A stretch of DNA of 44,502 bases from Chromatiaceae bacterium (GCA_041307365.1 JBFZDM010000058.1:1-44502), one strand, 5' to 3'; positions 130-38,732 are shown, numbered from the stretch's first letter. Translations and numbers: made by a program. The notes: generated by a model not told the origin, from the letters alone.

Positions 130-165
130 CACTGACACTTTTTGTCACTTCGAGGGTCTAAGGGC

Positions 166-801
166 ATGAGCACCAAACGTAAACCCACCTTGCCAGATGT
201 CCAGTTTGTTGTCATGAAGCTCGCCGACCTTCGCCCGGCCGCCTACAATCCCCGCACCATCTCAGACGACGCCATGGCTGGCCTGGAAGCCTCGATCACT
301 CGCTTCGGCCTGGTCCAGTGCCCGGTGTTCAACCGGCGGTCTGGTACGCTGGTCGGCGGCCACCAGCGGGTCAAGGTGCTCGAGAAGGCCGGCATGACCG
401 AGACCATGACCGCCGTGGTCGATGTGGACGAGACCAGCGAGAAGGCGCTCAACCTGACGCTCAACAACCCGGCCATTGCGGGGGAGTTCAACGAGCGGCT
501 AGCCGACTTGCTCGGGATCATCCAGGCCGAGGACGAGAAGCTGTTCGGGGAGTTGCGCCTTGACGTGCTGCTGCCGGCGGAGCCCGACAAGCCAGAGGAC
601 GAATGGCAGGGTATGCCGGAGTTTGAGCAGGAGGATCAGGGCCCGTGGAAGACGGTCCATGTCCACTTCCGGGGCAAGGAAGACCTCGACGCCTTCGCTG
701 CGTTGGTCGGCCAGGCCATGACGGAGAAGACCAAGTTTGTCTGGTATCCGAAGGCCGAGATCGGTGTCTATCGCGACAAGGGCTACGTCGATGAACCCTA
801 G
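166..801 (+). CDS. ParB-like nuclease (ParB N-terminal) domain protein
   Basis: Contains the motif LRPAAYNPRTI...LVGGHQRVKVL typical of the ParBc domain. ATG at 166; the ORF is also open from TTG at 142. The stop overlaps the next gene's start. Confidence 0.75.
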   Translation: MSTKRKPTLPDVQFVVMKLADLRPAAYNPRTISDDAMAGLEASITRFGLVQCPVFNRRSGTLVGGHQRVKVLEKAGMTETMTAVVDVDETSEKALNLTLNNPAIAGEFNERLADLLGIIQAEDEKLFGELRLDVLLPAEPDKPEDEWQGMPEFEQEDQGPWKTVHVHFRGKEDLDAFAALVGQAMTEKTKFVWYPKAEIGVYRDKGYVDEP

Positions 802-1633
802 GCATCCGGTGTACATCATCAGCAAGGGCCGATGGGAATCAAGATATACATCAAATGAGCTTGAGCGGATCGGGGTGCCGTACCATATCGTGATCGAGCC
901 GCAAGAGTACGATCAATATGCAGCGGTCATCGCCCCAGAGAAGATACTTGTGCTCCCGTTCTCGAACCTAGGCCAGGGCTCAATACCGGTGCGCAATTGG
1001 GTCTGGGAGCATTCAATCGGGCTCGGTGCAGAACGACATTGGATAATGGATGACAACATATTGAAATTCTATCGATCCAATAGAAATTCAAAGATACCGG
1101 TGCAATCTGGAACGATTTTCCATTGCGCAGAGCAGTTCATTGATCGGTATGAGAACATAGCGATGGCTGGCTTCCAATATGAATCGCTATCGCCAAGAAG
1201 AGATATCAAAAAACCATTGGCTTTTAACACGCGCATCTATTCTTGCATCCTGTTGTTGAACTCGCTGAAGCACCGCTGGCGGGGCCGGTACAACGAGGAT
1301 ACAGACTTGAGCTTGCGACTGCTCAAGGATGGTTGGTGTACTGTGCTGTTCTATGCTTTCCTCGCGAACAAAGTGGCAACAATGCGAGTCAAGGGCGGCA
1401 ACACCGACCAGCTCTATAAGCAGGACGCAACCTTCGATGGCCGGCTGGAAATGGCCCGGTCGCTTGCCCGGCAGCACCCGGACGTGACGAAGATCAAGTG
1501 GAAGTGGGGCCGGTGGCAGCATGTCGTGGACTATTCTCGGTTCAAGCGAAACAAGCTCAAGCGGCGTCCTGGGGTCGAGATCCCTGATGGCGTGGACAAC
1601 TTTGGGATGACGCTGAAGGTGTTCGAGCAATGA
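791..1633 (+). CDS. GT-A-fold glycosyltransferase-like protein (possibly TAGT/GREB1-like)
   Basis: Has an N-terminal VYIISKGR strand, a DxD-like IMDDNI and a second acidic motif NEDTDLSLRL. GC is clearly lower (mid-40s % by eye over 820-1260) than in the flanking genes. ATGA overlap with terS. Confidence 0.5.
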   Translation: MNPRHPVYIISKGRWESRYTSNELERIGVPYHIVIEPQEYDQYAAVIAPEKILVLPFSNLGQGSIPVRNWVWEHSIGLGAERHWIMDDNILKFYRSNRNSKIPVQSGTIFHCAEQFIDRYENIAMAGFQYESLSPRRDIKKPLAFNTRIYSCILLLNSLKHRWRGRYNEDTDLSLRLLKDGWCTVLFYAFLANKVATMRVKGGNTDQLYKQDATFDGRLEMARSLARQHPDVTKIKWKWGRWQHVVDYSRFKRNKLKRRPGVEIPDGVDNFGMTLKVFEQ

Positions 1634-9500: not shown

Positions 9501-11573
9501 ATGACGAGCGGACGGGACGAAGGGAAGCTCTACGAGCAGTACCGCGCCGGCTTGGCTCTGGCCTGGCCGGACGGTCACGTCATCTTCGTCTCCAGCACCA
9601 ACGGCAACGACGGGAACGACGGCGAGTATCCTTGGCGCGCGCTGAAGACTCTGGCGCGTGCCGAGGCCGTTGCCACGGCTGGAGACACGATTATCCTGGA
9701 GCCGGGCGGATCCGAGACCTTGACGGCTGGGATCACGCTCAATGTGGATCATGTCAAGATCGTCTGCCCCGTGGCCAATCCGCGCCAGGGCTACAAGCTG
9801 ACCGGGTCTGGAGCGCTGGACCTTCTGGCGATCAGCTCCGACGATTGCCATGTCGAGGGCCTGTGGTTCTACCCGTCGGCCGGCACGACTCACAGCGCGG
9901 CTGGGATCCAGCTCGCGGCGGGGGCCGATCGGGCTGTGATCAAGAACTGCCTCTTCGACAACACCGCCATCACCACGACCTACCAGGGTTGGGGCGTTGA
10001 GCTGGTCGGCGCGGTCGTGGACACGGTCATCGACGGGTGCGAGTTCCGCGATTGCATGTACGGTGTGACTTGGTTGACCGGGACAAGCGACACCGTGATG
10101 CGGACCAAGATCAAGGATTGTCTGTTCTATGTCGGGCAAACCGCGGCCTTCGGTGTTGGGTCTCAGATCACGGGATCCGGCGCGATCCAGGGCGTCGTCC
10201 TGGACGGTTGCTCGTTCGTGGAGGCCAAGGGTTCTGGCGCGGCTGCGGCTGCTGCCTGGAACGGCTCGACTGGCGCCGACGCGACCCGTGGCCCTATCCT
10301 GTTCGAAGCCGGTGTCGATCAGTTCCTCGTGCAGAACTGCCGGGCGTATACGGCGCTGGCACAGGCGTTCTCGACCTTGAACGCGATCAACGCGGGCGCG
10401 GCCGGCGACTTGGTGAATTGCGCCTCCGGCGTGGGCTCTGACACGACGGCGGCGGTGGATAGCGTGGGCGTGGTGGCCAGCGGCGGGATGTCGGCGGCTG
10501 TCAGTGCGGCGTCTGGGGTGGCGTCTCTCGGGACCAGCAACAGCACGGCGAACAGCTCTACCCTGTCTGTGGCGACCTCGGCCTATTCCGGGATTGTCAG
10601 CCTGGCGACGAGCAATAGTGGAGCCCACAGCTCTACCCTGTCCGTGGCGACCTCGGCCATGTCCGGGATCGTCAGCCTCGCAACCTCGAACGCCCTGTCG
10701 CATAGCTCTTCGCTGTCGGCGGTTGTCTCGACGGGGTCGGGCGTGGTGAGCTTGGCTGCCTCGAATACTCTATCGCACAGCTCCACCCTCAGCGCGGTGG
10801 CGTCTGCGGGCTCTGGTGTGGTGAGTCTCGCGACCTCGAATGCCCTATCACATTCGTCCTCGTTGAGCGCGGTTGTCAGCCTGGCCACGAGCAACGCCCT
10901 GAGTCACAGCTCTAGCCTGAGTGCGGTTGTCTCGACGGGGTCGGGTGTGGTGAGCTTGGCGGCGTCGAATACTCTATCGCATAGCTCTAGCCTTAGCGCG
11001 ATCGTTTCGACGGGGTCGGGCATCGTGTCCTATGCCGCCAGCGGCAGCGCGGCGCACAGTTCTACCCTGAGCGTGGCCACCTCTGCCATGTCCGGGATCG
11101 TCAGCATGGCTACGAGCACTAGCGTTGCCTTCTCGGCGAGCTTGGTCCAGCAGACCAAGGCCGGGCGCTGGGTCGCGGTTAAGGATACCATGGCTGATAC
11201 CGACATGGGGAACAACGCGCAGCAAGCCCAGGGTGCCTTCGCCACGGCCACAGGCGGGGATGTGATGATCGAGGAGATCATCTTCCAGAAGGACGGGACG
11301 GCCTTGGACGGTTGCACGAACATCGAGGTAACGTGCGACAACGTCAACGGGCCGACCGGCGCCACCAACTTGATGGCGAACGTCAAGGCAGGGCTTGCCG
11401 CGAATCTGAAGCTCCTGGCCACGGCGGGCGGGGTGACAGCCTTCACGCGGATGGTTCTCGAGTCTGGCAAGAAGCTCTATGCGCAGGGCAACGACGGGGC
11501 GCCGACCGATGCCGGGGCAACGGTCATCTATACCTACGGTATGGCCATGACCGATGGCGCGTATCTGGCCTAG
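9501..11573 (+). CDS. Right-handed beta-helix (pectate-lyase-like) protein with a central Ser-rich 25-aa repeat array; fibre or spike-like
   Basis: N-terminus VFVSSTNGNDGNDGEYPWRALKTLARAEAVATAGDTIILEPG (DUF1565/beta-helix pattern). About 8.5 repeats of SGIVSLATSNALSHSSSLSAVVSTG. AGGAGG RBS. Confidence 0.7.
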   Translation: MTSGRDEGKLYEQYRAGLALAWPDGHVIFVSSTNGNDGNDGEYPWRALKTLARAEAVATAGDTIILEPGGSETLTAGITLNVDHVKIVCPVANPRQGYKLTGSGALDLLAISSDDCHVEGLWFYPSAGTTHSAAGIQLAAGADRAVIKNCLFDNTAITTTYQGWGVELVGAVVDTVIDGCEFRDCMYGVTWLTGTSDTVMRTKIKDCLFYVGQTAAFGVGSQITGSGAIQGVVLDGCSFVEAKGSGAAAAAAWNGSTGADATRGPILFEAGVDQFLVQNCRAYTALAQAFSTLNAINAGAAGDLVNCASGVGSDTTAAVDSVGVVASGGMSAAVSAASGVASLGTSNSTANSSTLSVATSAYSGIVSLATSNSGAHSSTLSVATSAMSGIVSLATSNALSHSSSLSAVVSTGSGVVSLAASNTLSHSSTLSAVASAGSGVVSLATSNALSHSSSLSAVVSLATSNALSHSSSLSAVVSTGSGVVSLAASNTLSHSSSLSAIVSTGSGIVSYAASGSAAHSSTLSVATSAMSGIVSMATSTSVAFSASLVQQTKAGRWVAVKDTMADTDMGNNAQQAQGAFATATGGDVMIEEIIFQKDGTALDGCTNIEVTCDNVNGPTGATNLMANVKAGLAANLKLLATAGGVTAFTRMVLESGKKLYAQGNDGAPTDAGATVIYTYGMAMTDGAYLA
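10512..11147 (+). repeat. In-frame tandem repeat, 75-nt (25-aa) unit, about 8.5 copies, with one 18-aa partial duplication
   Basis: Read directly from the translation (aa 338-549). The units are conserved at the protein level but heavily recoded at synonymous sites. Confidence 0.85.
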
Positions 11574-11574
11574 T

Positions 11575-11613
11575 AGCGGGCACCGGTGGCGGGGTTCGAT
11601 TCCCCGGCCCGCT
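11575..11613 (+). other. tRNA-like minihelix: acceptor stem plus T-arm, with no D-arm or anticodon arm
   Basis: AGCGGGC-accggtgg-CGGGG-TTCGATT-CCCCG-GCCCGCT. It has a 7-bp acceptor-like stem and a canonical T-loop, and starts 2 nt after the stop codon of the 9501-11573 gene. Confidence 0.6.
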
Positions 11614-11650
11614 GTTGTTCTGTGGCGTCTAACACAGGAGGGTAGAGGGC

Positions 11651-11881
11651 ATGACGGATCAACAGTTCGCAACGTTCCTCGATTGGTGCGCGTCCAGCCG
11701 GTTCATCGACTTCGGCCACCAAATCAAGATGGCCGAACTCCTGGTCAAAGGCGGGCATTGGGACGTGTCGCTCAAGAGCGCGCCGTCTCAGATGCTCCTT
11801 CGCCAAGCAGATGGGACGTTCACTCATCGAGACTCAGAGGCTTGCAGGGCAGCCGCCGCGGCCGGGGTGCGGAAAATATGA
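11651..11881 (+). CDS. Hypothetical protein
   Basis: 76-aa ORF with an AGGAGGG RBS and an ATGA overlap with the downstream glycosyltransferase. Confidence 0.55.
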   Translation: MTDQQFATFLDWCASSRFIDFGHQIKMAELLVKGGHWDVSLKSAPSQMLLRQADGTFTHRDSEACRAAAAAGVRKI

Positions 11882-12960
11882 AGGTCATCCATTGGGCGCC
11901 GTTCGCGCCGTTCCGCTGCGGCCTGTACGAGGCCGCCCGAGACATGGCCCACGCGGACGCGATCGCGGGCCATGACGTGAAGTTCTGCGACCTCGGCGTC
12001 CCCGAGGGCCGAGACAAGCCACGGCCCCAGGGCGACCCAGAGCAGCTCGGGGGCAAGATCGACGACCGCGCGGGTTGGCAGCTGGTGACGAGCGGCTGGG
12101 CCTGTAGCCATGACGCGGACTTGTGGATCTGCCACGACGGTATCCCAAGCTGGGTCAGCGAGCGCAACCTTGTTCCGCAGCTCTGGATCGTACACGGTAG
12201 GCCGATCTACTCATGGAGGCTCGAAGTGTTCGGTGGTTGGCCAGGCGCGTTCTCACTGCATACGGATCTGGCCCTACGCCGCCGCACGTTCGGCTTCGTC
12301 ACAATGTGGCCAGAGCTCGTTCCGGTCTGGAGCTCTATGAGTGCCGGCAAGCTCCGGTGCATTGACCATCCATGTCTGGACTTGGCGCGCTACAGCCACG
12401 ACGGGCCGAAGTACGAGATCAAGAAGGAGTCCCGCGGCGAGTTGAACATCCTGATCTGTGATACCGAGCGGGAAGACATCGGTTGTCTGGAGGTTGCTAC
12501 CGCCGCCCTTGAGGCCGCGCGCTCGGCGCCCGGGCGGGTCAAGGTGCATTTCTGGGCGATCGAGGAAAAACATGGGCCGGCCTGGCAACCCATGTTCCAG
12601 CTGCTGCGGCAGTGCAACGGGCTCGGCGAGATCCATGGGCGCGAGCCAGACATCGAGAAGGTGTTCCGCGCCATGGACGTGATGGCCAGCCCTCACCGGA
12701 TCGGCACGCGCACGCTTCTCGAGGCGCTGGCCTGCGGCCTCGAGGTGGTGTCCGATACCGAGTGCAGGTATACGCGATACCAGGCCGACCCGAGGCACAC
12801 GGCGGACTATACCGCCGAGCTGTTGCGGGCCATGGATCAGCGCCGGTCGCCGGAAGAGATGCGCCGCCCGTTGGAGCCCTGCGGCCTTGGCCCGTTCGGG
12901 GCGCGCATGAGCAAGATCTACGACGCGGTGTTGCACCGGGAGGCGACACATGCCGTATAG
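11878..12960 (+). CDS. GT-B fold glycosyltransferase (GT1/GT4-like)
   Basis: C-terminal signature VFRAMDVMASPHRIGTRTLLEALACGLEVVS matches the GT4 pattern xPSxxExfGxxxlEAmAxGxPVv. The internal ATG at 11878 overlaps the upstream stop. Confidence 0.7.
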   Translation: MKVIHWAPFAPFRCGLYEAARDMAHADAIAGHDVKFCDLGVPEGRDKPRPQGDPEQLGGKIDDRAGWQLVTSGWACSHDADLWICHDGIPSWVSERNLVPQLWIVHGRPIYSWRLEVFGGWPGAFSLHTDLALRRRTFGFVTMWPELVPVWSSMSAGKLRCIDHPCLDLARYSHDGPKYEIKKESRGELNILICDTEREDIGCLEVATAALEAARSAPGRVKVHFWAIEEKHGPAWQPMFQLLRQCNGLGEIHGREPDIEKVFRAMDVMASPHRIGTRTLLEALACGLEVVSDTECRYTRYQADPRHTADYTAELLRAMDQRRSPEEMRRPLEPCGLGPFGARMSKIYDAVLHREATHAV

Positions 12961-13561
12961 CGACAACACCGCGCACCCGGCATTTGTGGCCGCTCTCAAG
13001 GGAATGGTTGACCCAGGCGCCGCGCATACTTTTTTGGACTGCGGCGTAGGCGCCGGCTGGACGGCGGTACTGATCCGGCAGGCGTGCCCCGAGGCACGGA
13101 TCACAGGGCTTGAGATCTACGCGCCGTATGTCCTGGACACCGCCAAGCGGGCCGAGGTCGAGGCAGAGTGTGGTCTATACCATCATCTGTACGAGTCGAT
13201 GATCGTCGGCCGGTTGGGCGACTTCCGGGCGTTCCTGCCGGAGCAGGCCAGCGGGTCATTCGACTTCGTGGTGTTCGGGGACAGCTTGGAGCACGTCGCC
13301 CGGTCCGAGGGTGAGGAGGCGCTAGCCGCTGCGCAGGCCGTTGCCCGGCGGGCGGTCGTGGCCGTGGTCCCGTCAGTGCGGCGGATCGAGGGCCAAGACT
13401 ACGCGTTGACTCAGGGCACTGCATTCGGGAACCAGCACGAGGCACACCTGGCGCACTGGTGGCCGAAGCAGCTGGAGGCGCTTGGCGGGCGGGCGGCCGG
13501 CCATGGGCAGTTTGCGACCGTCTATGTGTGGGAGAATCAACGCGCGGTGGTCTACCGGTAG
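12950..13561 (+). CDS. Class I SAM-dependent methyltransferase
   Basis: Motif I LDCGVGAG, post-I ITGLEI and FDFVVFGDSLEHV. Confidence 0.75.
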   Translation: MPYSDNTAHPAFVAALKGMVDPGAAHTFLDCGVGAGWTAVLIRQACPEARITGLEIYAPYVLDTAKRAEVEAECGLYHHLYESMIVGRLGDFRAFLPEQASGSFDFVVFGDSLEHVARSEGEEALAAAQAVARRAVVAVVPSVRRIEGQDYALTQGTAFGNQHEAHLAHWWPKQLEALGGRAAGHGQFATVYVWENQRAVVYR

Positions 13562-13612
13562 GACGGGGGCTTCATGCGCCCCAGATAGCCGGTTCGATTC
13601 CGGCCCGCGCAA
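13541..13612 (+). tRNA. tRNA-Met (anticodon CAT); could also be an Ile2-type CAU tRNA
   Basis: Hand-folded cloverleaf: acceptor CGCGCGG/CCGCGCA (C1-A72 mismatch), D-arm GTCT-ACCGGTA-GGAC, anticodon arm GGGGC-TTCATGC-GCCCC, variable loop AGATA, T-arm GCCGG-TTCGATT-CCGGC. No CCA is encoded. Overlaps the last 21 nt of the methyltransferase CDS. Confidence 0.75.
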
Positions 13613-13627
13613 TAGGAGATCGGCCCC

Positions 13628-13996
13628 ATGATTTGTCTCGATTTCGACGGCGTCATTCATGACTACGCGGCGTCTAGCCGGGCCGATATTCCGGACGGGC
13701 CGCCGATCCACGGCGCAATCGAGGCGCTGAAGGAGATCGGCGAGTTCATTGTCTGGACCTCGCGGCCCGAGAGCCAGGCTGACGGCGTGCGAGCGTGGCT
13801 GATGTCGCGTGGTCTCGCGGCCACTGTGTCAGCTTGCAAGCCCACGGCGCTAGTGTACGTTGACGACCGCGCTCTACGATTTTCCGGGTCATGGGAAGAA
13901 ACTAAGCGCGCGCTGGCCAGCCCGGCCATGCTGCGGCCCTGGTGGTCGAAGCCGTTGCGAAAGTTCGTGCGGTTCGTTACGCCGCGGAGGCTGTGA
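13628..13996 (+). CDS. HAD-superfamily phosphatase-like protein
   Basis: Motif I LDFDGVIH, motif II VWTSRP and motifs III/IV CKPTALVYVDDR. AGGAGA RBS. Confidence 0.65.
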   Translation: MICLDFDGVIHDYAASSRADIPDGPPIHGAIEALKEIGEFIVWTSRPESQADGVRAWLMSRGLAATVSACKPTALVYVDDRALRFSGSWEETKRALASPAMLRPWWSKPLRKFVRFVTPRRL

Positions 13997-19220: not shown

Positions 19221-21313
19221 GCGCGTCGCTGGCCGGGCAACCGCTCCTGGCCGATCAGGCCATCAGCTGGGCGATCAAGGAAGGTATCGCCCCGCAGACG
19301 GCGACATTCCGGCTCGCATTCGATGACGCCGCGCGGGCGTGGAAGGCCGGCCGCGGGCTGACGCCGGTGTCTCTCGTGGTCGGCGGTGCCAAGTATGACA
19401 ACCTTCTGATCATTCGTCGCGAACCGACAGAGGATCCGCGGATCGGGGCGCTTCTCGTTGCCGACCTGCGGTTCCTCTGGCCTTGGGTGCGGTTCGGGCC
19501 GAAAGCGTACAACAAGACCCGGAAGTCAGGAGACAGGCGGTATTTCGGCTCAACCGACGAGATCGGGAACCGCGACACAACGTCAGTGGCTGATGACATA
19601 GACTACATTGCCCACACCACGAAGTATGGATTGGGGCCTGCAGGCGGCGGGGTCGTGCCCTGGGACGCGCGGAGCGTCCTGATTGACGTGTTGACCGCCG
19701 TCAAGGATGACCTGGCCTATCGGATTGCCTACAACCTCAGCGCGCCCGGTACGGGCGGCGTGGGCTCGATGCCGATTCGTGACCTGATCATTGCGGGCAA
19801 CGGTGCTCAAGCGATCCAGCAGGCTCTATCCCACATGCCGACCGTGGCCGTAATTGTGACCGCGGACGGGAACGTCCGGGTCAAGCCGCGGCTCGACGGG
19901 CGCGAGGTCGAGGCGATCGACAGCGGCCCGGCGATGGTTGTCGGCCCGGAGCTCCCAACCTGGATCGACCGGCGCAACATGCGCCCGCAGGCCATCGACG
20001 TGCTGTTCACGCCAGAGGTAGAGCTGCGCTTCGACTTCGACGAAGCGGGCTCGATCGGGGCCAGCTCCAGCTACCGCCGCCTCGAGAACGTGTGCCAGGT
20101 GCGGCGGCCGTACATGACGATCGGGGGCGTTGAGCGGACGGCGGGGACCTGGGTGCTACTGACTGACTTCGTGACGGCGTTGGCCGCGTTGCCGCTGCCT
20201 GGCACGGCGCGCGCTCCAATCTCGATGGACGTGATCAAGGAGCGGTTCTGCGGCGGGATGCTGGAGCTCGAATATAGTGGCTCGGTAGGATCTGCTGTTG
20301 CCGCCGACCCGCTATGGATGGCCGACATCCGGGAGATCCAGAACAGCTTCCGGCAGAAATTCAGGATCGACAAGCGGTGGGTGGACCGGTTCTCTAAGTG
20401 GTCGGCAACCCGCGTGGCCACGCTCGACGAAGAGAGCGGTCGGCAGGGCAAGGCATTCTGGGCAGCGGACTACGCAGTCCGCTGGCCGCAAGACAGGCTG
20501 GCGCGGGGCTCGGGGCAGAATGACACCACGCATACCAACATCGCCGGGTACTCGGCCGACACCTCCGAGTGCTACGATTCCGCGGCCGAGCTCCAGATCC
20601 TAGATCAGGATGTGGGGATTTTCGGGGTCAAGTATATTGGCTCGACGTGGGGCCTCGCGGCGAAGGTCTACCCGTCGTCGCTGGCCAACCAGGTCGGGCG
20701 GTGCATGTCCTCCTACAACCTGGCCGACAACCCGATCGTCGAGTCATCCTTGCACCTGTCGAGCAACCAATGGGGTTGCACGATCTTCCGCGCGATCCCG
20801 TCCGAAGTCGGGAAGGACAGCCTCTACCGTGTGCGAGTGACGCCAGCTCAGGCGGCGGCCAAGCTCCCGGGCGTGGCGAGTTCGCGCATGGGCGCCTGCA
20901 ACGGCCCGCTACTGGAGGTCTATGTCCAGCCAACGACCATGACCGCGCGATTCGGGTGGCTCGACGCCGGCAAGACGATGTCTGAATCTATCTTCGGCTG
21001 GCACGGCCCGGTGAGCTGGCCGGAAGACCACCTTGTGAACGGGGCGCAACTGCGAGACCTGGCCGTCTCGACCGCCGCGACCGAGTATGCACGGCTGATC
21101 GACGGGGTCGTGGGCGCCGCGGTGCATGCCGGGGTATCGGCCTATCGCGAGCCGCTGGGCCTCGCGAACGAGACACGGATCGTCCTTCAACCTGACGGGA
21201 TTGTGACCACAACCCACAAGCACACGCCGGAAGGGCCGGGCATTGACTTTACCTATTTCCTGAACGAGGGCACCAGGCGGTTCCTGCGCCTACAGTTGGG
21301 GCCAGATCAATGA
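19217..21313 (+). CDS. Tail / baseplate structural protein
   Basis: 698 aa, ATGA-coupled at both ends. Confidence 0.55.
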   Translation: MSASLAGQPLLADQAISWAIKEGIAPQTATFRLAFDDAARAWKAGRGLTPVSLVVGGAKYDNLLIIRREPTEDPRIGALLVADLRFLWPWVRFGPKAYNKTRKSGDRRYFGSTDEIGNRDTTSVADDIDYIAHTTKYGLGPAGGGVVPWDARSVLIDVLTAVKDDLAYRIAYNLSAPGTGGVGSMPIRDLIIAGNGAQAIQQALSHMPTVAVIVTADGNVRVKPRLDGREVEAIDSGPAMVVGPELPTWIDRRNMRPQAIDVLFTPEVELRFDFDEAGSIGASSSYRRLENVCQVRRPYMTIGGVERTAGTWVLLTDFVTALAALPLPGTARAPISMDVIKERFCGGMLELEYSGSVGSAVAADPLWMADIREIQNSFRQKFRIDKRWVDRFSKWSATRVATLDEESGRQGKAFWAADYAVRWPQDRLARGSGQNDTTHTNIAGYSADTSECYDSAAELQILDQDVGIFGVKYIGSTWGLAAKVYPSSLANQVGRCMSSYNLADNPIVESSLHLSSNQWGCTIFRAIPSEVGKDSLYRVRVTPAQAAAKLPGVASSRMGACNGPLLEVYVQPTTMTARFGWLDAGKTMSESIFGWHGPVSWPEDHLVNGAQLRDLAVSTAATEYARLIDGVVGAAVHAGVSAYREPLGLANETRIVLQPDGIVTTTHKHTPEGPGIDFTYFLNEGTRRFLRLQLGPDQ

Positions 21314-24300
21314 CGTTCATTTCGGACCCGCAGAACCGTGGCATCGATCCCATGCAGTTCTTCGACCCGCGGACGCGGGTCAATATGGTGCCGGTCCCGC
21401 GCTGCGTGCGGGTTCTACTGCGGCATGACAACGGGGAATATGAAATCGAGCCGGAGAGCTACGGCCCGTATGCCTGCTGGGTCATGTGGCCGGCGGCGTC
21501 ATCTACTGGATTCCCACTCTGGAGCCCGATCTTCCCCGCGGCGGTCGAAACCCCGCGCAACTACGACCAGATCAAGCGGGCGTCCAGGCCGACGCAATTC
21601 GCCGTAGATGCGATTTCGGCTGGGGATTTCAGCACAGCAGCCCACCTGCGGGCTGTTCTACCAGCCGTGCCGGACTGGGCAGGAACATTCCCCGCCATGT
21701 GGCCCGGCGTCATTACTGCCGGCACGGATCAATCATCTGCCCAGCACGAGATCTGGATGCCTGCCGGATACGGCCTGGTGAGCGTGGGCCAGGACGGCAC
21801 CAACCCTGACTGCTCCACCCGGGTATTCGCCACCCGCCTCGAAGACCTGGACCCGGAGACCTGGGCCAGGATCTCGACGGCGTGGCGCGTGTGCCGTACC
21901 GGCTGGCCGCTGCGGCACCCAATCGCGCACCTCGCCTTACCCGTCTCGCTCGCGGGTGGCGTCAGTGGCGTTCTGTCAGATCCCACGAAGCGGCCGCCGC
22001 AACAGAATTTCGATCGGTACGGCCTAGCGTGGGAGCTCGGCCAGCCCAATGGTGGGCTGCTCGGGTTCGGGCTGTGCGTCCATGACGATCCAAACCCGGG
22101 AGGAACGATCGTCCGCGGCCAGGTGCCGCGGGTCTGGGGCACAGCTTCGGCCATGGCTGGTGGCCCGCTGGTGATCCCGCCAACGTGCTGCGTCCATGAG
22201 CTCGGGGCGACCGACGACGGCGAGCCGATCCGGGCGGTGCATCTGTCGTGTGATTCGATGTTCTGGTCCACTCAGGCCCACTGGGACCATCCATTGTACT
22301 TCGAGGACAAGTACATTGACCGGGTGAACGCTGAATCCGGCTCGCCTTGGATCGTCCGCCTGCAGCGCGGCGCACCAGACGGCAGCAGATCTCAGGCCGG
22401 TAAATTCGCCGGGCCTGGAACAGGTGTCACCGGACGATCGGGGAATGTCGGCCGCTGGGTCGTTCACCTCCCGATCGACGATGACGAGCTCGGGACGCCG
22501 AGCACACCGGGCGGGAAGATCATTCCCGCGCCAGGGGGCGGAACTCCTCTTCCAGGGTTCACCGTCCCCGGCACGCCGCCGACCACGTCGGGGACACGCC
22601 CACGGCCACCTGGTACGCCCAAGCTCCCGACGGACGCATGCGATCCCGATCTAGCGGTAGCGCGGGCCAATGGCACCCTGCAGCAGTCTAGCACCTCGGT
22701 TTCAACGGACCCGCTTGAAACCTATGTCGAGCCGGGGAAGGAGCCGGCCACGATTACGGGCGACCGGCGCCCGCGCCCGCTGCTCAGCACGCCCCGGGAG
22801 CTCGCAGTTCCTGCGCTCGTGCTCAGGGCGCAACCGGTGGTCGGCGTCGGTGCTGCCGGCGACCTGCGCAACCGGCAGGGATACTCGCAAGCCGATGTCG
22901 AGCGATACCGCCGCAACCCGATCCAGGCCCGGATCGAGGTGATCGGGAAGGAAGGCGGCGGCGGTCAATACACACGCACATCTGACGATACATACCAGAG
23001 GTACGCCGGGCGGCCGGGGCATTCTGACGGTGTTGTAGCGATCCTGCCCGGCAACGTGGGCGCCGAAGATCACGCGACAAACTACGCGCCGGCGGATCGG
23101 ACGATCCCGGACGCCTCACTGGCCGTTCTCCCGGGGCACCGCGGGTATCAGATCGGGTATCCTGACCCGGCCAAGGGCCTCGTGCGCGATGGTTGGCGCA
23201 ACGACGCCGACACGAGCCAGGTCATGCGCTGGCGTTCGCTAGATTCTGCCGGCGCCGCGACCGAGAAGATGCGCCTCTCGACGACGGCCCTGCGCCTCGC
23301 CTCGATCCCATTCGAAGCGGCAGAGGTCGCCACCCCGGCGACGCCCGACAGCGGCCATTCTCGTACCTACCCGAAGGCGGACGGCGCATGGTACGAGCTG
23401 GATGACGCCGGGTATGAGGTGCGTTCGGACAAGCGCGGCGTGGGCGCGCGCGTCGATAACCAGGCCGACTGGACCCTGAGTTATGATGAGACCACGCGTA
23501 AACTGACAGTCACCGCAACGGCCGCTGTGGCCTGGTACGACGGGCGCCGGGTGGCGCATACCTTCGCGGCGGTGGAATCTACCGCCCACGCGGCCACGAC
23601 CGGGACGTACGTGTTTTATCTGCAGGCAGACGGCACTCTGGCCAACACCACTCGCGCGCTGTTCGATTGCCTTGGCAGCACAACCGCCCCGCTCGCGACG
23701 GCCTATTACAACGCTACCACGGCGAAGGGGTTCGCGTTCAATTGCCTGCACGAAGCGACCATGGACAGCCATGTCATGCTCGCCCTGCTGACCCGCGGGT
23801 CCGCCTACGTTTCGGGCGGCGTGATCTCGGGGGTCACGGTAGACACCGGTGGCTCGGCCGCGCAGCAGCTGGCGCTGACGGCGACCACGTTCGAGGGTGC
23901 TGGGTTGACGCACGCCAACAACGCCCTGGTGGCGGGAACCTACATGGTCGCCTACCGCTCGGGCGCGGACGTGAACGGGGAATGGTCGTGGGCTGCGACC
24001 GAGACCGAGCCGGCCTCGGATGACGGCACCAACGTCTATTACAATCAGCTCTCAGGCGGCAACTGGAGCCGCACGGCGGTAACAGCTAACAACCGCTGGG
24101 TCAACTATTTCGTCGTGGCCATGCCCTCGCTGGCCGGCCCGCAGTACGCCTGCATCATGGGGCAGACGCTGCATAGTAGCTACGAGGCGGCCAGAGACGA
24201 GACGATCCAGACGATCGATTGGGGCGACTTCCAGTTCGCTGACCTGTTTTGCCCCATGTATCAACTGATCTACCGCCGCGCCGTGGCCGCGGGCGCCCCG

Positions 24301-26082
24301 AGCAACGCCTACATCGATGACTATCTGGCGATTTACGGCGGGACGATCGCGCTCGGCACGACTGCCGCGTCGAGCCCGGTGGCCGTGACTACCTTCCAGG
24401 ATGACCAGTTCCGGGTCTATGGCAGCGTTGACGCCACGAAGCAACTCGCCCTCGAAGTGGACGGCCTGACCACGGCGACCACGCGCACGATCACGATGCC
24501 GGACTCGAATGTCGACCTGACGGCCAACACCGGCACGTTCGCGGCGGCCAGTCATGCGACGCGGCACACCAACGGCAGCGACGACATCCAGAGCGCGACC
24601 GCAGCCCAGAAGGGGCTGATGAGCCTGGCCTATGCGGCCAAGCTCGATGGAATCGAGGCCGGGGCGGACGTGACGGACGAAACCAACGTTACCGCGGCGC
24701 ACCCGATCTCGGACGCGACGGCGCTGGTCAAGGATCCGGTCGCGCCCACGAAGCTGGGCCGGATCGACGTGGGCGCGGTGACGGCCGGGGCGACGCGGGT
24801 CATCACCATGGGCGACCGCGATGTGAATCTGGCCAGCGGCGGCACCTTCTCGGAGCTGGTACACGCCTCGCGGCACCAGAATGGCGGCGCTGATGAGGTC
24901 GCGACCGCTGCCGCTGCCGCCAACGCGATTCCCAAGGCCGGGGCAGGCGGCACCCTCGCGGCGGGGTGGTTGCCTGCGGCGACAGCAGCCGCGGCCGGGG
25001 CGGTGGAGCTGGCCACTCAGGCCGAGGTAGACGCAGGCGCGGACGCGGGGCGCGTGCTGACGCCGGAGACGTTCGCCGCGTCGAGCCTGCTCGGCGGCAC
25101 CAACAATGGCCCGTGGGGCTCGGCGATCGACGGGGACAGGACGATCAATGCCGACCCCTCGACCGTGCTCGCGGCGGACACGGTGTACGAATATGACGAC
25201 CTGACCCTGAATGCCGCGTGGACGATCGACTGCGCCGGCTACGCGCTTGTCATCCGGGTCGCGGGGACACTGACGATCGCTGCGTCCCAGGTGTTGCAGG
25301 TCTACCGCGACGGCTCGGGCGGCACGGCCGGGGCTGCAGGTGCGGCGCCAGGGGCGGGCGGGGCCGGGGGGAACGGATCACTCGTCACGTCCTGGACCTG
25401 TTGTGCGGCAGGCGGCGGCGGCGGCGGCGGATCCTGCGACGGGAACCAGGGCGGCGCCGGGGGCAACGGCGCCAATCGTTCGAGCCTATGGCTTGGGGCC
25501 GCTGCAGGCGGCGGCGGCGGCGGTACCGGTGGCCCGCTGGACAATGGCGACGGCGCGGACGCCAGCGCCGGAGCCACGCTCACAGCCCCGTACACGCGAT
25601 ACAAGATGGTTGCCGAGGCAGCCCAAATGATTTGGCTTGGCTACGGGGCAGGTGGCGGAGGCGGCGGGGGCGGCGCTGGATCTGAATGGGGCGGCGGGGC
25701 GGGCGGGGCAGGTGGCGACGGCGGCGGGCAGCTCCTGCTCGCGGCGCGCGCAATCAGCTTCGGGGCCGGGTCATCGATCACGGTAGCAGGAGCGGACGGG
25801 GAGGATGGGGAGGACGGCGCCGGGATTGACTCCGCGGGCGGCGGCGGGGGTGGTGGAGGCGGCGGCGGATACCTCGGGGTGGTCACGAGCTCGCTGAACG
25901 GCACCCCGGACACGACGACCGGGAACCTCGTGACGATCACGCTCGGGGTTGGGACGGCTACCCTGACATCTGCCGGAGGAGCGAAGGGGATCGGCGGCCG
26001 AGGGATGGGCGGCGGTGGCGACGGCGGCGATGGTCTCGGTGGAGAAGCGGGAGCAACTACCCTCGTAATGTACGGCGACTAG
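21310..26082 (+). CDS. Large tail fibre / central spike protein with a Gly-rich C-terminal region
   Basis: 1590 aa. Carries fibre-type motifs ATRHTNGSDDI, ASRHQNGGADEV and GAVELATQAEVDAGADAGRVLTPETF. The C-terminal 250 aa are dominated by poly-Gly runs. Confidence 0.7.
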   Translation: MTFISDPQNRGIDPMQFFDPRTRVNMVPVPRCVRVLLRHDNGEYEIEPESYGPYACWVMWPAASSTGFPLWSPIFPAAVETPRNYDQIKRASRPTQFAVDAISAGDFSTAAHLRAVLPAVPDWAGTFPAMWPGVITAGTDQSSAQHEIWMPAGYGLVSVGQDGTNPDCSTRVFATRLEDLDPETWARISTAWRVCRTGWPLRHPIAHLALPVSLAGGVSGVLSDPTKRPPQQNFDRYGLAWELGQPNGGLLGFGLCVHDDPNPGGTIVRGQVPRVWGTASAMAGGPLVIPPTCCVHELGATDDGEPIRAVHLSCDSMFWSTQAHWDHPLYFEDKYIDRVNAESGSPWIVRLQRGAPDGSRSQAGKFAGPGTGVTGRSGNVGRWVVHLPIDDDELGTPSTPGGKIIPAPGGGTPLPGFTVPGTPPTTSGTRPRPPGTPKLPTDACDPDLAVARANGTLQQSSTSVSTDPLETYVEPGKEPATITGDRRPRPLLSTPRELAVPALVLRAQPVVGVGAAGDLRNRQGYSQADVERYRRNPIQARIEVIGKEGGGGQYTRTSDDTYQRYAGRPGHSDGVVAILPGNVGAEDHATNYAPADRTIPDASLAVLPGHRGYQIGYPDPAKGLVRDGWRNDADTSQVMRWRSLDSAGAATEKMRLSTTALRLASIPFEAAEVATPATPDSGHSRTYPKADGAWYELDDAGYEVRSDKRGVGARVDNQADWTLSYDETTRKLTVTATAAVAWYDGRRVAHTFAAVESTAHAATTGTYVFYLQADGTLANTTRALFDCLGSTTAPLATAYYNATTAKGFAFNCLHEATMDSHVMLALLTRGSAYVSGGVISGVTVDTGGSAAQQLALTATTFEGAGLTHANNALVAGTYMVAYRSGADVNGEWSWAATETEPASDDGTNVYYNQLSGGNWSRTAVTANNRWVNYFVVAMPSLAGPQYACIMGQTLHSSYEAARDETIQTIDWGDFQFADLFCPMYQLIYRRAVAAGAPSNAYIDDYLAIYGGTIALGTTAASSPVAVTTFQDDQFRVYGSVDATKQLALEVDGLTTATTRTITMPDSNVDLTANTGTFAAASHATRHTNGSDDIQSATAAQKGLMSLAYAAKLDGIEAGADVTDETNVTAAHPISDATALVKDPVAPTKLGRIDVGAVTAGATRVITMGDRDVNLASGGTFSELVHASRHQNGGADEVATAAAAANAIPKAGAGGTLAAGWLPAATAAAAGAVELATQAEVDAGADAGRVLTPETFAASSLLGGTNNGPWGSAIDGDRTINADPSTVLAADTVYEYDDLTLNAAWTIDCAGYALVIRVAGTLTIAASQVLQVYRDGSGGTAGAAGAAPGAGGAGGNGSLVTSWTCCAAGGGGGGGSCDGNQGGAGGNGANRSSLWLGAAAGGGGGGTGGPLDNGDGADASAGATLTAPYTRYKMVAEAAQMIWLGYGAGGGGGGGGAGSEWGGGAGGAGGDGGGQLLLAARAISFGAGSSITVAGADGEDGEDGAGIDSAGGGGGGGGGGGYLGVVTSSLNGTPDTTTGNLVTITLGVGTATLTSAGGAKGIGGRGMGGGGDGGDGLGGEAGATTLVMYGD

Positions 26083-35119: not shown

Positions 35120-35710
35120 TCATTCAATGAAATCGAAGTGCTGTTGGTTTTGGTCGGAAGGTCGCTGTGGCGTCGGGAATACACGTCTCGGCGGCGGGTT
35201 CCCGTCGTGGCCCAGGATGACTTCCTCTGGCACCATGGGGCGTCGTGCCAGTGTTCGATCTGACATCCAGCGGAAGGCCCTGAACCGTGTTCCATCGCCG
35301 TTGTCTTGCTCGAAGCCGGCAACAGTACCGCTCTGCTTCCAGAGATCCCATACCCAGGTGCGGAACTTCGACAGATCGCAGATGACCCAATGCGCGAGCG
35401 CCCCGCCATCCTCTGATCTCAGGCCATAGAAGAAGAGATCGCCAAACCCCTCCATGACCTTCTTGAACTCGGTCTTCGTCCCGCTGTCTCTGCGGCTCCG
35501 CAGGGTAAATTCGCCCCAGTATTTCTTGTAACTTGGCCTTCTGATCCTGACCGCAATCCGAAGATCCTTGGCGATGATCAGTTTCAGATCCGTGGCCTTG
35601 AGCGCGTCATCCTCGAACGGTGCTTCGATCAGAAGATACTCGGCGAGGAGGCGCTTGACCTCCGGCATGTACCTGTCTGCCTCGATCTTGTCTCGTTCCC
35701 AGGCCATCAT
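35120..35710 (-). CDS. Hypothetical protein
   Basis: 196 aa with an ATGA overlap to the upstream methyltransferase stop. I recognise no family. Confidence 0.6.
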   Translation of the reverse strand: MMAWERDKIEADRYMPEVKRLLAEYLLIEAPFEDDALKATDLKLIIAKDLRIAVRIRRPSYKKYWGEFTLRSRRDSGTKTEFKKVMEGFGDLFFYGLRSEDGGALAHWVICDLSKFRTWVWDLWKQSGTVAGFEQDNGDGTRFRAFRWMSDRTLARRPMVPEEVILGHDGNPPPRRVFPTPQRPSDQNQQHFDFIE

Positions 35711-36870
35711 GATTCTTTCCCCCACACGTCGAAGTCCTCAATCGGGCGGCGGTTGAACATGTCGATCCGGCGCCCTGCGGTCACTCGGCGCAAGGTCTCG
35801 TAGAACGCTTCCGGCTTGGCGCTGTGCTCGGCACGCGGCGCCTGGAAACAGGTCGGAAACGCCTTCGTGTCGATGAATTGCGGCGTCCCGCGGCGGCCGT
35901 AAAGGCAAAACTCGCAGTTGTACTGTGGCAGGCCGAACGGCTGCGGCCCGCCTGGCTTGTGCCAGACGAAGGTCAAGACATACTTGACAGCCCAGGCCGC
36001 CAGGATCGAAAAAGCGTCTGGCAAGAAGCGCTGGGTAGTCCACAAGAAGACGTGGGCGTCAGGTGCCGCGGGGATCTTGATGGCCTCGATCTCGGCGAGG
36101 TCCATGGTCGGATAGTCGAGCTCGGCTTGCTGGTTCGGGCGGCAGTCACGCTCGATCTTCGCCATGGGCCATGGCGGATCAACCACAACCACGTCATAGA
36201 CGCCCACGGCTGCCTTGGCGGTCTTCGCCTCGATCGATTCGAGGCGCTGCACTACCTCGGCGCGCTTGGTCTCGCGGACGGCGGCAGCCAACGGCATTTC
36301 GCCCGATTGAACCCTGGCCGCGAGTTCGGGGGCGTTGCGCTTGAGGCTGATGGCCTGGCGGATCTTGCGCTCGGGCAGGTTTGAACTTTTGGCGGCAGTC
36401 GTAACTTTTGGCTCTGCCCGGGTTCGTTGTTTAGGTGCAAGCTCTGATCGCTTGCTGGACACGTCGTCCAGCAAGCGATCGGTGATCTGTTCTGGCGTCG
36501 CTTTACCGCCGGCTGCTCTTCCAGCCTTCGCCCGTTCCTGCTTTGCCCTCTCAATCTCGAGGTCCACCAGCGTCGCCTTGACCATGGCCCGCTGGTCATC
36601 GGTCAGGTTCCGGCGTTGCAGCTGGTTCTTGCTGACCCAGATCTTGGCGACCAGGCGATCCTGCAGGCTCAAGCGGGTCTCGCGGTACGGCTTTCCGAGC
36701 CGGTCGCAGATCCCGACTCGCTGGTGACCGTCAAGCAGGATGCCAGTCTCATCCCAGACGATGACAGGGTCACGACAGCCCTCGTCGGCGATGCTGGCCT
36801 CAAGCAAGGCCAGCTCGGCAGGTGTGGATAATGTGAGTAAGCTCTGGAATTCAGGGTCGATGGTGAACAT
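35707..36870 (-). CDS. ParB N-terminal domain fused to an MT-A70-family (N6-adenine type) DNA methyltransferase
   Basis: N-terminus ILLDGHQRVGIC (ParBc). C-terminus VVVDPPWPM (DPPW motif), LWTTQRF and SAKPEAFYE. Confidence 0.85.
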   Translation of the reverse strand: MFTIDPEFQSLLTLSTPAELALLEASIADEGCRDPVIVWDETGILLDGHQRVGICDRLGKPYRETRLSLQDRLVAKIWVSKNQLQRRNLTDDQRAMVKATLVDLEIERAKQERAKAGRAAGGKATPEQITDRLLDDVSSKRSELAPKQRTRAEPKVTTAAKSSNLPERKIRQAISLKRNAPELAARVQSGEMPLAAAVRETKRAEVVQRLESIEAKTAKAAVGVYDVVVVDPPWPMAKIERDCRPNQQAELDYPTMDLAEIEAIKIPAAPDAHVFLWTTQRFLPDAFSILAAWAVKYVLTFVWHKPGGPQPFGLPQYNCEFCLYGRRGTPQFIDTKAFPTCFQAPRAEHSAKPEAFYETLRRVTAGRRIDMFNRRPIEDFDVWGKES

Positions 36871-37128: not shown

Positions 37129-37305
37129 ATGTACTCTGTCTCTCGCGTCGCTGCCCAGCTCGGCGTCACGGCGTCTGTCGTGCGCTACTGGATCCGGGCC
37201 GGCAAGGTCCGGGCCATTGCCACCCCCGGCGGCCACTACCGCATTCGCCAGGACGAGCTTGACCGGCTACTGTCGGCCGTCACGGCGGGAGGCGCCACAC
37301 AGTGA
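37129..37305 (+). CDS. MerR/excisionase-type HTH DNA-binding protein
   Basis: MYSVSRVAAQLGVTASVVRYWIRAGKVRAIATPGGHYRI fits the HTH_17 pattern. GGAGGA RBS. Confidence 0.65.
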   Translation: MYSVSRVAAQLGVTASVVRYWIRAGKVRAIATPGGHYRIRQDELDRLLSAVTAGGATQ

Positions 37306-38732
37306 TCGATCCTCATGCGTCCGCGCGCGTACTGCTCGGGTCGGTCCTACTGCGCCCGGAGCTCTATGCGCAACTCGAGGCCGTGCCGCCATACGCGTTT
37401 CCGGGCCGCCTGCGCCCGATCTATACCGCCATGGGGGAATGTTCCAGGGCGGGTGAAGATCCGGGCCTCATGGAGGTCAGGCGGCGCTTGAACGGGCATG
37501 CTGATGGGTTGGGCCTGCTTGATCTCTGTGAGGAGATCCGCGGCGAGGGCGTCAACGCTAAGCTGTTCGTGCGGCTGGTCGAAGACCTTGCCCCGATCGC
37601 GCGCCAAAACAAGGTACGCGAGATCCTGGACGCGGCGGCGTCCAAGGCACTTGGGCTGGACGGTCATGACCTCGAGCGGTTGGGGCGCGACACCGGCGAG
37701 CTTTTGCATGCGGCCATGGCAGACCGCGGCGGTTCCAACCTCGTGACACGATGTCTAGCCGACATCGAACCGCTGCCGACTGATTGGCTCTGGACCGACC
37801 GCATCCCACTCGGCATGCTGTCGCTGTTGGCGGGGCATCCCGGGCTCGGCAAGACCTGGCTGTGTCTGTACCTAGCCGCGTGCGTGTCGCGCGGCACCGA
37901 GCTCGCCGACGGATCGCCCTGCCCCATGGGGCGCGTGGTGATCCTGACGGCAGAGGACGATGCCGCCCGGACGATCCGGCCACGGATCGACAAGCTCGGC
38001 GGCGACCCATTCGCCATCACCGTGGTAGATGCCTATCGAGGCCAGGACGGCAAGGAACGCGCGCTGCACCTCGACACGGACGTCTCGGAGCTCGATCGGC
38101 TCTTGGGCCAGCTGGATAACGTCAAGCTGGTGTTCTTCGACCCGATATCGGCCTACCTCGGCAACGTGGACAGCCACAACAATGCGGACGTGCGCGGGGC
38201 GCTGGCGCCGGTCTCGGCGTTGGCGTCCAAGCATGGATGCGCGGTTGTGTTGGTCTCGCACCTGAACAAGGGCGGCAAGGATAGCAAGTCGGCTGTCCAC
38301 GAGCGGATCATGGGCAGCACGGCATTCGTAGCGGCCTGTCGGTCGGTGTACGGTGTCTGGCGCGACACCGCGAACCCTGCGGATCGGCTGTTTCTGCCAG
38401 TCAAGGTCAACATCGCCCGGGAAATGCTAGGTCTGATGTACCAGGTGGATTCGGACGGGATCCGCTGGTCTGCGGTACCGACCGAGCAGACCGCGGAACA
38501 AGCCTCGGCGGCCAACCCGGCGACAGAAGACGAGCGGTCGGCGTTGAAGGACGCGCAGGATTTCTTGCGCGACACCCTGCGGGCGGGGCCGATGTCGTCG
38601 AAGCAGGCGCTGAAAGAGGGCGCCGACGCCGGGATCTCGGCCCGGACGCTGAACCGCGCCAAGGTGGTGTTGGGCGTCCTGTCCCTGCGGGTGGATGGTC
38701 AATGGTCTTGGCAGCTCCCCATGCCCCTATGA
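37302..38732 (+). CDS. Replicative helicase-like protein: DnaB-N-like domain plus RecA-like (AAA_25/RepA-type) ATPase
   Basis: N-terminus ARVLLGSVLLRPELY, Walker A AGHPGLGKTW and Walker B-like KLVFFDPISAY. GTG start overlaps the upstream stop. Confidence 0.75.
   Translation: MIDPHASARVLLGSVLLRPELYAQLEAVPPYAFPGRLRPIYTAMGECSRAGEDPGLMEVRRRLNGHADGLGLLDLCEEIRGEGVNAKLFVRLVEDLAPIARQNKVREILDAAASKALGLDGHDLERLGRDTGELLHAAMADRGGSNLVTRCLADIEPLPTDWLWTDRIPLGMLSLLAGHPGLGKTWLCLYLAACVSRGTELADGSPCPMGRVVILTAEDDAARTIRPRIDKLGGDPFAITVVDAYRGQDGKERALHLDTDVSELDRLLGQLDNVKLVFFDPISAYLGNVDSHNNADVRGALAPVSALASKHGCAVVLVSHLNKGGKDSKSAVHERIMGSTAFVAACRSVYGVWRDTANPADRLFLPVKVNIAREMLGLMYQVDSDGIRWSAVPTEQTAEQASAANPATEDERSALKDAQDFLRDTLRAGPMSSKQALKEGADAGISARTLNRAKVVLGVLSLRVDGQWSWQLPMPL

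Follow-up and report, generated by a model that had tools for sequence, protein, structure and literature searches.

A glycosyltransferase gene linked to a Ser/Thr-rich repeat protein in the late operons of uncultured phages: a candidate module for fibre glycosylation

A contig of a Chromatiaceae bacterium assembly (GCA_041307365.1, JBFZDM010000058.1:1-44502; the whole stretch of 44.5 kb, with a GC content of approximately 65%, is referred to here as the window) carries a phage late operon which raises the question of why genes for the transfer and tailoring of sugars should lie among genes for virion structure. An initial annotation had proposed that four consecutive genes, for a protein of 76 aa (orf76), a glycosyltransferase (GT), a class I S-adenosylmethionine (SAM) methyltransferase (MT) and a phosphatase of the haloacid dehalogenase (HAD) type, together with tRNA-like elements at their boundaries, form a system that decorates a Ser-rich repeat protein encoded directly upstream. 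Each of these elements was found at its stated position: four open reading frames (ORFs), a tRNA-Met and a tRNA-like minihelix, as well as 25-aa repeats rich in Ser. The best reading of the functional unit is nevertheless a smaller one, a late module of two to three genes consisting of a heptad-periodic Ser/Thr repeat protein, the GT and usually the MT, the latter being adjacent or fused to the GT. The components of this module in the window are as follows.

9501-11573 (+), fibre-like protein of 690 aa, the candidate glycan acceptor, encoded directly after the major capsid gene
9558-10430 (residues ~20-310 of the 690-aa protein), N-terminal right-handed beta-helix, AlphaFold2 (AF2) predicted local distance difference test score (pLDDT) of 80-90
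10455-11165 (residues 319-555), Ser/Thr-rich 25-aa repeats, AF2 pLDDT of 25-35
11166-11570 (residues 556-690), conserved C-terminal domain of a family shared with relatives
11878-12960 (+), GT-B glycosyltransferase of 360 aa, recognized with AF2 and Foldseek, soluble
12950-13561 (+), class I SAM-dependent methyltransferase of 203 aa, recognized by Pfam above gathering

Association of the GT with the repeat protein was followed across metagenomic viruses in a set of 43 GT loci, which collapse to 33 lineages when grouped at 90% identity and to 31 when grouped at 60%, a lineage being regarded as assessable where DNA upstream of the GT was available. A Ser/Thr-rich repeat protein encoded on the same strand, with a period of 7n or 7+11, was found upstream of the GT in 31 of 31 assessable lineages, either directly or separated solely by an MT gene or by two small genes (encoding a protein of ~165 aa and a DUF7164 protein). 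The recurrent repeat motif approximates to DSVGTxxSTxNS, and enrichment for the pattern DSVG/SxGxxxSTxNS was seen in only 27 of 2546 six-frame ORFs of the GT loci; all 27 precede the GT, at distances of -31 to +1360 nt. In the reverse test, in which IMG/VR was scanned from the conserved N-terminus of repeat-only proteins, all 17 assessable loci had a GT no more than 1.2 kb downstream, and six of these loci were new, having been missed by the scan with the GT. The tie between the GT (with its MT) and the Ser-rich repeat gene, for which the initial annotation had called for a survey of relatives, was thus borne out in both directions.

The GT was found to track the repeat rod and not the beta-helix or C-terminal domains of the 690-aa protein, as homologues without a GT retain those domains in the absence of Ser-rich repeats. 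P0011 and P0012 possess a beta-helix that is 45-48% identical to that of the window protein, while L053 and L058 share the C-terminal domain; each has other repeats or none, and no GT. Neither the repeat motif nor a GT was found at any of 50 further beta-helix loci. Repeat-only proteins, which possess neither a beta-helix nor the C-terminal domain, were always accompanied by a GT. The position of the module was also constant, between the capsid genes and the neck and tail genes, across differing capsid types (lambda-like, Mu-gpT-like and others) and GC contents; a low-GC example is L011, with a repeat protein of 267 aa. This synteny gives strong support to an association of GT and MT with the repeat protein.

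A distinct class of cassette, with two genes between the repeat protein and the GT, was observed at L018 (8683-10004) and 11-13 other loci (the class comprising L018, L022-L024, L028-L030, L033-L035, L040 and L044), with the DUF7164 gene alone being present also in L019 and L036. The DUF7164 protein matched PF23741 at E 1e-40, and a PDB sequence search with it returned nothing useful. Assignment of the ~165-aa family as a methyltransferase could not be confirmed, as it shows solely a resemblance to motif I (ELGAGLGST), with an hhalign probability of 17% and one member matching Methyltransf_24 at E 0.084. The ~165-aa and DUF7164 proteins may be additional glycan-building enzymes, a context that may point to a function for DUF7164. 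Among the module-bearing sequences, a viral contig of 39 kb (L046/L027; JASFEO010000012.1 = IMGVR_UViG_3300035130_000073) is filed in a metagenome-assembled genome (MAG) of 'Candidatus Pacearchaeota archaeon', and another member of the GT family is labelled as belonging to a Planctomycetota MAG. These labels are likely to be binning artefacts or weak hints of the host; on the strength of one MAG label, Planctomycetota-like hosts are possible for the window phage.

The signature motifs reported for the GT (SPHRIGTRTLLEALACGLEVVS) and for the MT (LDCGVGAG; FDFVVFGDSLEH) in the initial annotation were all present. For the GT, a GT-B fold of the GT4-like type was confirmed at the level of the predicted structure. 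Its AF2 model, obtained with eight homologues (pLDDT 84, predicted template modelling score 0.86), comprises two halves of alternating beta-strands and alpha-helices, and the best matches in a Foldseek comparison with the PDB (E 3e-12 to 1e-10, template modelling score ~0.65) were to BshA, MshA, PimA and glycogen synthase. When WaaG is included, these retaining GT4 enzymes of GT-B fold span E 3e-12 to 1e-8, and SdgB, the GT4 O-glycosyltransferase of staphylococcal Ser-Asp repeats, was among the structural neighbours at E 7e-9. The family profile aligns to the C-domain of MshA and PimA, the nucleotide-binding region, where profile-to-PDB alignment places the invariant Glu282, the second Glu of the EX7E motif, against the Glu of 'MEAQASG' in MshA. 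An alignment of eight GT sequences contains 56 invariant columns, which include the donor-site Arg, Glu and His.

The window GT is a founder-type member of a new GT4-like family. While a word-indexed search of 5.8 billion proteins yielded only eight relatives, a full scan of 1.84 billion representatives with a hidden Markov model gave 509 clusters (50% identity), of which 194 had E <1e-30. When three diverse family members were compared by tblastn with 50,697 GenBank phages, among them mycobacteriophages, no match was obtained at E 1e-3. Both the GT and the repeat family are absent from these phages and from PHROGs, and searching GenBank phages with the window itself, at the DNA and protein levels, likewise yielded no match.

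Assignment of the downstream gene to the class I SAM methyltransferases held up, with Pfam matches above gathering to Methyltransf_25 (30.0 bits, cut-off 27) and Methyltransf_11 (29.5 bits, cut-off 21.2); a PDB sequence search with this protein gave nothing useful. The GT gene overlaps orf76 by 4 nt (ATGA) and the MT gene by 11 nt. Translational coupling, which had been claimed for the whole cassette, is consequently retained for orf76, GT and MT but not for the HAD gene, which is uncoupled from the MT by the tRNA lying between them. Orthologues of the MT lie beside the GT in L004, L009 and L014, and P0008 has the MT joined to the GT N-terminus. The ten longest GT-family proteins (P0041, P0063, P0065, P0074, P0089-P0091, P0093, P0111 and P0114) were all found to be fusions. 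Eight of them contain class I or FkbM methyltransferase domains, four of these eight adding further GT domains (GT11 or Glyco_trans_1_2), and the remaining two add solely one GT domain (Glyco_trans_1_2 or GT2). As GT-MT fusions of this kind are of the Rosetta-stone type, the MT can be expected to tailor the sugar, and the window MT is probably the sugar O-methyltransferase of the module; fusion of MT domains to the GT family supports a methylated glycan as its predicted product. Individual architectures include a protein of 1159 aa consisting of GT, Methyltransf_11, GT11 (fucosyltransferase-like) and Glyco_trans_1_2 domains, as well as the combinations FkbM-MT with GT and MT, GT with GT2, and one member with a C-terminal ParB_N domain.

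In the 690-aa protein, the repeat stretch (residues 319-555) consists of approximately nine units of 25 aa, one of which is shortened to 18 aa, with peptides such as SGIVSLATSNALSHSSSLSAVVS and DSVGTLVSTGNSKV. Serine makes up 33% of this stretch and Ser and Thr together 42%, so that its description as Ser-rich stands. A simple disordered linker is the less likely interpretation, as the hydrophobicity of the window repeats has a periodicity of 3.6 residues and 25 can be decomposed as 7+7+11; in relatives the repeat spectra peak at 3.5 and 2.33 residues, with units mostly of 7, 14, 18, 21, 25 or 28 residues. This heptad/hendecad pattern suggests a coiled-coil-like rod rather than a plain disordered Ser-rich linker. 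The rod is proposed from sequence periodicity, since AF2 models only the beta-helix and its repeat and C-terminal parts are unreliable. No DNA-level tandem repeat underlying the protein repeats was detected with TRF, and a PDB sequence search with the protein returned nothing useful. Foldseek matches of the beta-helix comprised the pectate lyase Pel9A, a rhamnogalacturonan lyase, phage tailspikes and the capsid-decorating protein LH3 of snake adenovirus.

In one group of homologues without a GT (L047-L049 and L063-L065; P0011 and P0013), the Ser-rich rod is replaced by repeats of 38 to 45 aa (PTADxTTNTxxRDVVGNKTDAAV...SLMAYLKG), and a lambda FII-like head-tail joining gene (Phage_attach) follows. 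These homologues and their Phage_attach neighbour support a location close to the head and the exchange of the rod as a module.

The reading favoured here, to which we give somewhat better than an even chance, is that the module modifies the rod of a fibre on the head or neck by cytoplasmic O-glycosylation, with methylation of the sugar. The module genes would be co-transcribed with the head genes and the enzymes translationally coupled, the GT then moving a sugar from a host nucleoside diphosphate (NDP)-sugar onto exposed Ser/Thr hydroxyls of the rod in the cytoplasm and the MT O-methylating the transferred sugar. In relatives, the additional GT domains (GT2, GT11) and DUF7164 would lengthen the glycan. 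The glycosylated protein would subsequently take its place in the virion as a fibre on the head or neck, and its mucin-like glycan-coated rod could stiffen or solubilize the fibre, shield it from proteases or immune recognition, or provide adhesion. The broader proposition that this constitutes a self-contained 'glyco-fibre' module, common to many uncultured tailed phages of low and high GC content with varied capsids and giving a mucin-like glycan brush, is put forward tentatively, at slightly under even odds.

To our knowledge, demonstrations of virion glycosylation by phage-encoded enzymes have been confined essentially to mycobacteriophages, in which it alters immune recognition. If the broader proposition is correct, the module would add a new class to the surface structures of phages and would be the first case, beyond the actinobacteriophages, of an enzyme for virion glycosylation paired with a dedicated substrate. 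Glycosylated virion appendages would then be widespread among environmental phages (509 clusters, with at least 31 lineages possessing a dedicated repeat substrate), with consequences for adsorption, for adhesion to mucus or particles, and for resistance to proteases and antibodies. Two unannotated protein families, and perhaps DUF7164, would gain a function. As a two-gene pair of substrate and enzyme, the module is suited to heterologous expression, and the rod could be of use in phage engineering as a programmable glycan scaffold.

Functionally, the closest known system is the glycosylation of mycobacteriophage virions. For Che8, Corndog and phages of clusters O/F, PMC11600133, PMC12619734 and PMC13313380 (citing Freeman et al. 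2023) describe phage GTs and an O-methyltransferase for which decoration of virion proteins with glycans is proposed or shown, the genes lying within or beside the structural genes just as the window GT and MT lie between the capsid and downstream structural genes. The acceptors, as described in PMC12619734, are the C-termini of capsid and tail-tube subunits, whereas the linked partner here is a dedicated repeat-rod protein. Searches of the GenBank phages with tblastn, and of PHROGs, revealed no sequence relationship to the GT family, and the hosts of the module phages are probably not actinobacteria.

A second likeness is to the Ser-rich-repeat and Ser-Asp adhesins of bacteria (GtfA/GtfB; SdgA/SdgB), for which a cytoplasmic GT4 enzyme of GT-B fold, encoded by a gene adjoining that of its substrate, O-glycosylates the repeats. 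A GT4-type gene likewise adjoins a Ser-rich repeat gene in the module, and SdgB is a structural neighbour of the window GT. However, the module has no GtfB-like partner and no SecA2/Y2 export, and its repeats are heptad-periodic (DSVGTxxSTxNS-like) and not of the SD or SASxSAS type. The resemblance of the enzymes is one of fold only, with 9-17% identity among the PDB neighbours and ~9% to SdgB.

The head fibres and capsid beta-helix proteins of other viruses (phi29 gp8.5; snake adenovirus LH3) resemble the 690-aa protein in that the gene comes right after the major capsid gene and encodes a fibrous, repeat-bearing, trimer-like protein, LH3 being a beta-helix capsid decoration as well as a Foldseek match. 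They differ in having no sequence homology to the 690-aa protein, whose virion location is putative. We know of no dedicated glycosyltransferase for head fibres of the phi29 gp8.5/LH3 type. The logic of fusing GT and MT domains is shared with chlorovirus PBCV-1 (A064R) and the fibrils of giant viruses, in which virus-encoded, host-independent glycosylation of a virion surface protein employs multidomain enzymes with GT and sugar-methyltransferase domains (PMC4691112). Those are nevertheless viruses of eukaryotes, the glycans of their major capsid protein or fibrils are N-linked or atypical, and their enzymes are unrelated in sequence. No paper was found in the literature on a GT-repeat rod module, nor on DUF7164 or glycosylated phage head fibres.

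Several points weigh against the favoured reading. The phage is uncultured and the module is known here from its genes alone. Synteny of the kind described amounts to linkage and not to identity of enzyme and substrate, and we infer the virion position of the 690-aa protein solely from gene order. The repeat region, for which AF2 fails, may be purely structural. With regard to the enzyme, the Pfam match of the window GT to Glyco_trans_1_4 is sub-threshold (20.6 against 27 bits), the cut-off being passed by the family members P0091 (28.5 bits) and P0111 (29.9 bits); identification as a glycosyltransferase is upheld by the fold. The first Glu of EX7E is replaced, as the residues found 8-9 positions before Glu282 are His273, which is invariant, and then either Arg, as in the window protein (Arg274), or Val. 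In addition, a protein acceptor is not identified by the GT fold, as the structural neighbours (BshA, MshA, PimA, WaaG) are mostly small-molecule or lipid glycosyltransferases.

This last point bears on an alternative in which the GT and MT alter a glycoconjugate of the host envelope (a receptor or O-antigen), acting in superinfection exclusion or against adsorption to debris, and travel with a fibre gene directed at the same receptor. Enzymes with lipopolysaccharide or lipid acceptors (WaaG, PimA) are indeed among the nearest folds, and the depolymerase-like beta-helix of the 690-aa protein makes it a possible receptor-binding protein. This alternative is disfavoured and considered unlikely, given that the GT follows the rod and not the putative receptor-binding beta-helix and C-terminal domains, which occur without it, and that it is never missing beside repeat-only proteins devoid of those domains. 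No membrane segments were detected in the GT or the MT, nor in orf76 or the HAD protein, and known seroconversion cassettes are placed unlike the GT, which sits in a head-neck structural block.

Should the GT and MT instead act on virion proteins elsewhere, for instance those of the capsid or tail tube as in mycobacteriophages, the repeat protein would not be the substrate or not the sole one. The known phage precedent (PMC12619734) concerns the C-termini of capsid and tail-tube proteins, and the major capsid protein (MCP) of the window ends in SGTTAPADE. However, no difference in the C-terminus of the MCP separates relatives with a GT from those without one, and there is no GT-specific extension, and co-occurrence with the repeats is strict across very different capsid lineages, leaving this a distinctly improbable account.

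The full cassette of the initial annotation, in which orf76, GT, MT and HAD with their tRNA-like bounds act as one system for sugar activation, transfer and tailoring, includes four further elements. Downstream of the capsid gene the order is 690-aa protein, a 77-nt spacer containing the minihelix, orf76, GT, MT, tRNA-Met and HAD.

11575-11613 (+), tRNA-like minihelix with acceptor stem and T arm
11651-11881 (+), orf76, of 76 aa, with its own GGAGG Shine-Dalgarno sequence and a stop codon overlapping the GT start
13541-13612 (+), tRNA-Met (CAT) with a full cloverleaf, called by ARAGORN and matching the Rfam tRNA model at 53.8 bits (gathering 29, E 4e-10)
13628-13996 (+), minimal capless HAD-like phosphatase of 122 aa, matching phrog_1238 at 2e-13

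These genes are contiguous on one strand, and the HAD call is sustained by all four motifs, read by eye as D5xD7 (D5-F-D7-G-V), T43/S44, K71 and D79-D80 (DFDGV...CKP...VDD), as well as by its PHROG, which bears a heptose-pathway name. The matches are nevertheless below curated cut-offs (HAD_SAK_2 of Pfam at 17.4 against 27.5 bits, E 0.0057; BT0820 of NCBIfam at 13.9 against 165 bits, E 0.053), there being no above-threshold match to sugar-phosphatase families, and no PDB sequence match was found for the protein. In the closest relative, L009, the HAD homologue (446-820) lies between TerS and TerL, ~9 kb from the GT; other homologues (L059-L062) lie among genes for RecU, RNase_T, a DNA methylase and an AAA_33 kinase, and no HAD gene was found near the GT in any other GT locus. 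Orf76, which matches nothing in Pfam, PHROGs or NCBIfam, has no counterpart in the related loci examined, and no tRNA was found in ten related loci. A single cassette with all these parts is accordingly very unlikely. The HAD gene had to be dropped from the module, as had orf76 and the tRNA-like boundaries, of which a weak tRNA-like remnant is present solely in L009; HAD, orf76, tRNA-Met and minihelix are separate lineage-specific insertions outside the conserved module. A catalytically inactive GT-like protein, with a role as chaperone in fibre assembly or as a structural partner, is the least credible account, for despite the lost first Glu of EX7E and a location always just downstream of the fibre gene, where tail-fibre chaperone genes also lie, the 56 invariant columns include donor-site residues and the recurrent fusions to MT and GT domains make sense only for an active glycan pathway.

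From its genomic surroundings the HAD protein is probably independent of the glycosylation module, and nucleotides or RNA ends are more likely to be its substrates than sugar phosphates. Its family is sparse, with 16 matches in 5.8 billion proteins, situated in early or nucleic-acid-metabolism regions of phages. One member is near an AAA_33 kinase, which recalls the arrangement of a polynucleotide kinase-phosphatase, and the window HAD gene adjoins the tRNA gene and overlaps the gene that follows by 1 nt (TGATG).

The tRNA-Met possesses a C1xA72 mismatch atop its acceptor stem, a hallmark of bacterial initiator tRNA, and an unusual anticodon loop (G37). Since it takes in the final 21 nt of the MT ORF, its excision from a late transcript would remove the MT stop codon. 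The minihelix consists of a 7-bp acceptor stem (AGCGGGC/GCCCGCU), an 8-nt linker and a 5-bp T stem with the canonical loop UUCGAUU. It scored 22.5 bits (E 0.2, below gathering) with the mascRNA-menRNA model of Rfam, was not called as a tRNA by ARAGORN, and the 101-nt intergenic region folds no more stably than shuffled sequences (z = -0.93). No support was obtained for an inserted cassette bounded by minihelix and tRNA as att-like direct repeats, as they have in common solely a generic T-loop core of 11 nt (GGTTCGATTCC). A different, degenerate tRNA-like element was observed at the same junction of repeat protein and GT in L009 (IMGVR_UViG_3300036713_000542, 9896-9961), with the T arm GGAGG-TTCGAAT-CCTCC and a 7-bp acceptor stem; it gave a weak tRNA-Sec match (18.5 bits, E 2.6) and no ARAGORN call. 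A tRNA-like element may be conserved at this junction in the window phage and L009, and the minihelix could be the product of tRNA-gene decay or an RNase P-type processing site.

The late operon containing the module occupies the left half of the window and begins with a lambda-like head module, consisting of genes for a small terminase, a GpA-type large terminase, a Phage_portal_2 portal, an S78-type prohead protease, a D-like decoration protein and a Phage_capsid_4-type MCP. The HAD-like gene is followed by further structural-looking genes without a database match; together with the 690-aa protein and orf76, these were without an assignment in PHROGs, Pfam and NCBIfam. No promoter- or terminator-like sites were seen bounding the cassette.

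Just upstream of the small terminase gene, a TET-associated glycosyltransferase of 298 aa was identified at 737-1633 (+) (Pfam TAGT, PF20691, E 2e-42; phrog_842), preceded by a weak ParB_N-like ORF at 142-801 (+). These two genes suggest the presence in the window of a system for DNA cytosine hypermodification (glycosylation); no TET/JBP gene was identified among the window ORFs scanned. Most other ORFs of the window, including that of a 1590-aa protein at 21310-26082, were without a Pfam or PHROG match. The right arm was found to encode an MT-A70-type DNA adenine methyltransferase at 35707-36870 (-) (E 1e-15) and an AAA_25 (RepA/DnaB-like) ATPase at 37302-38732 (+) (E 9e-35).

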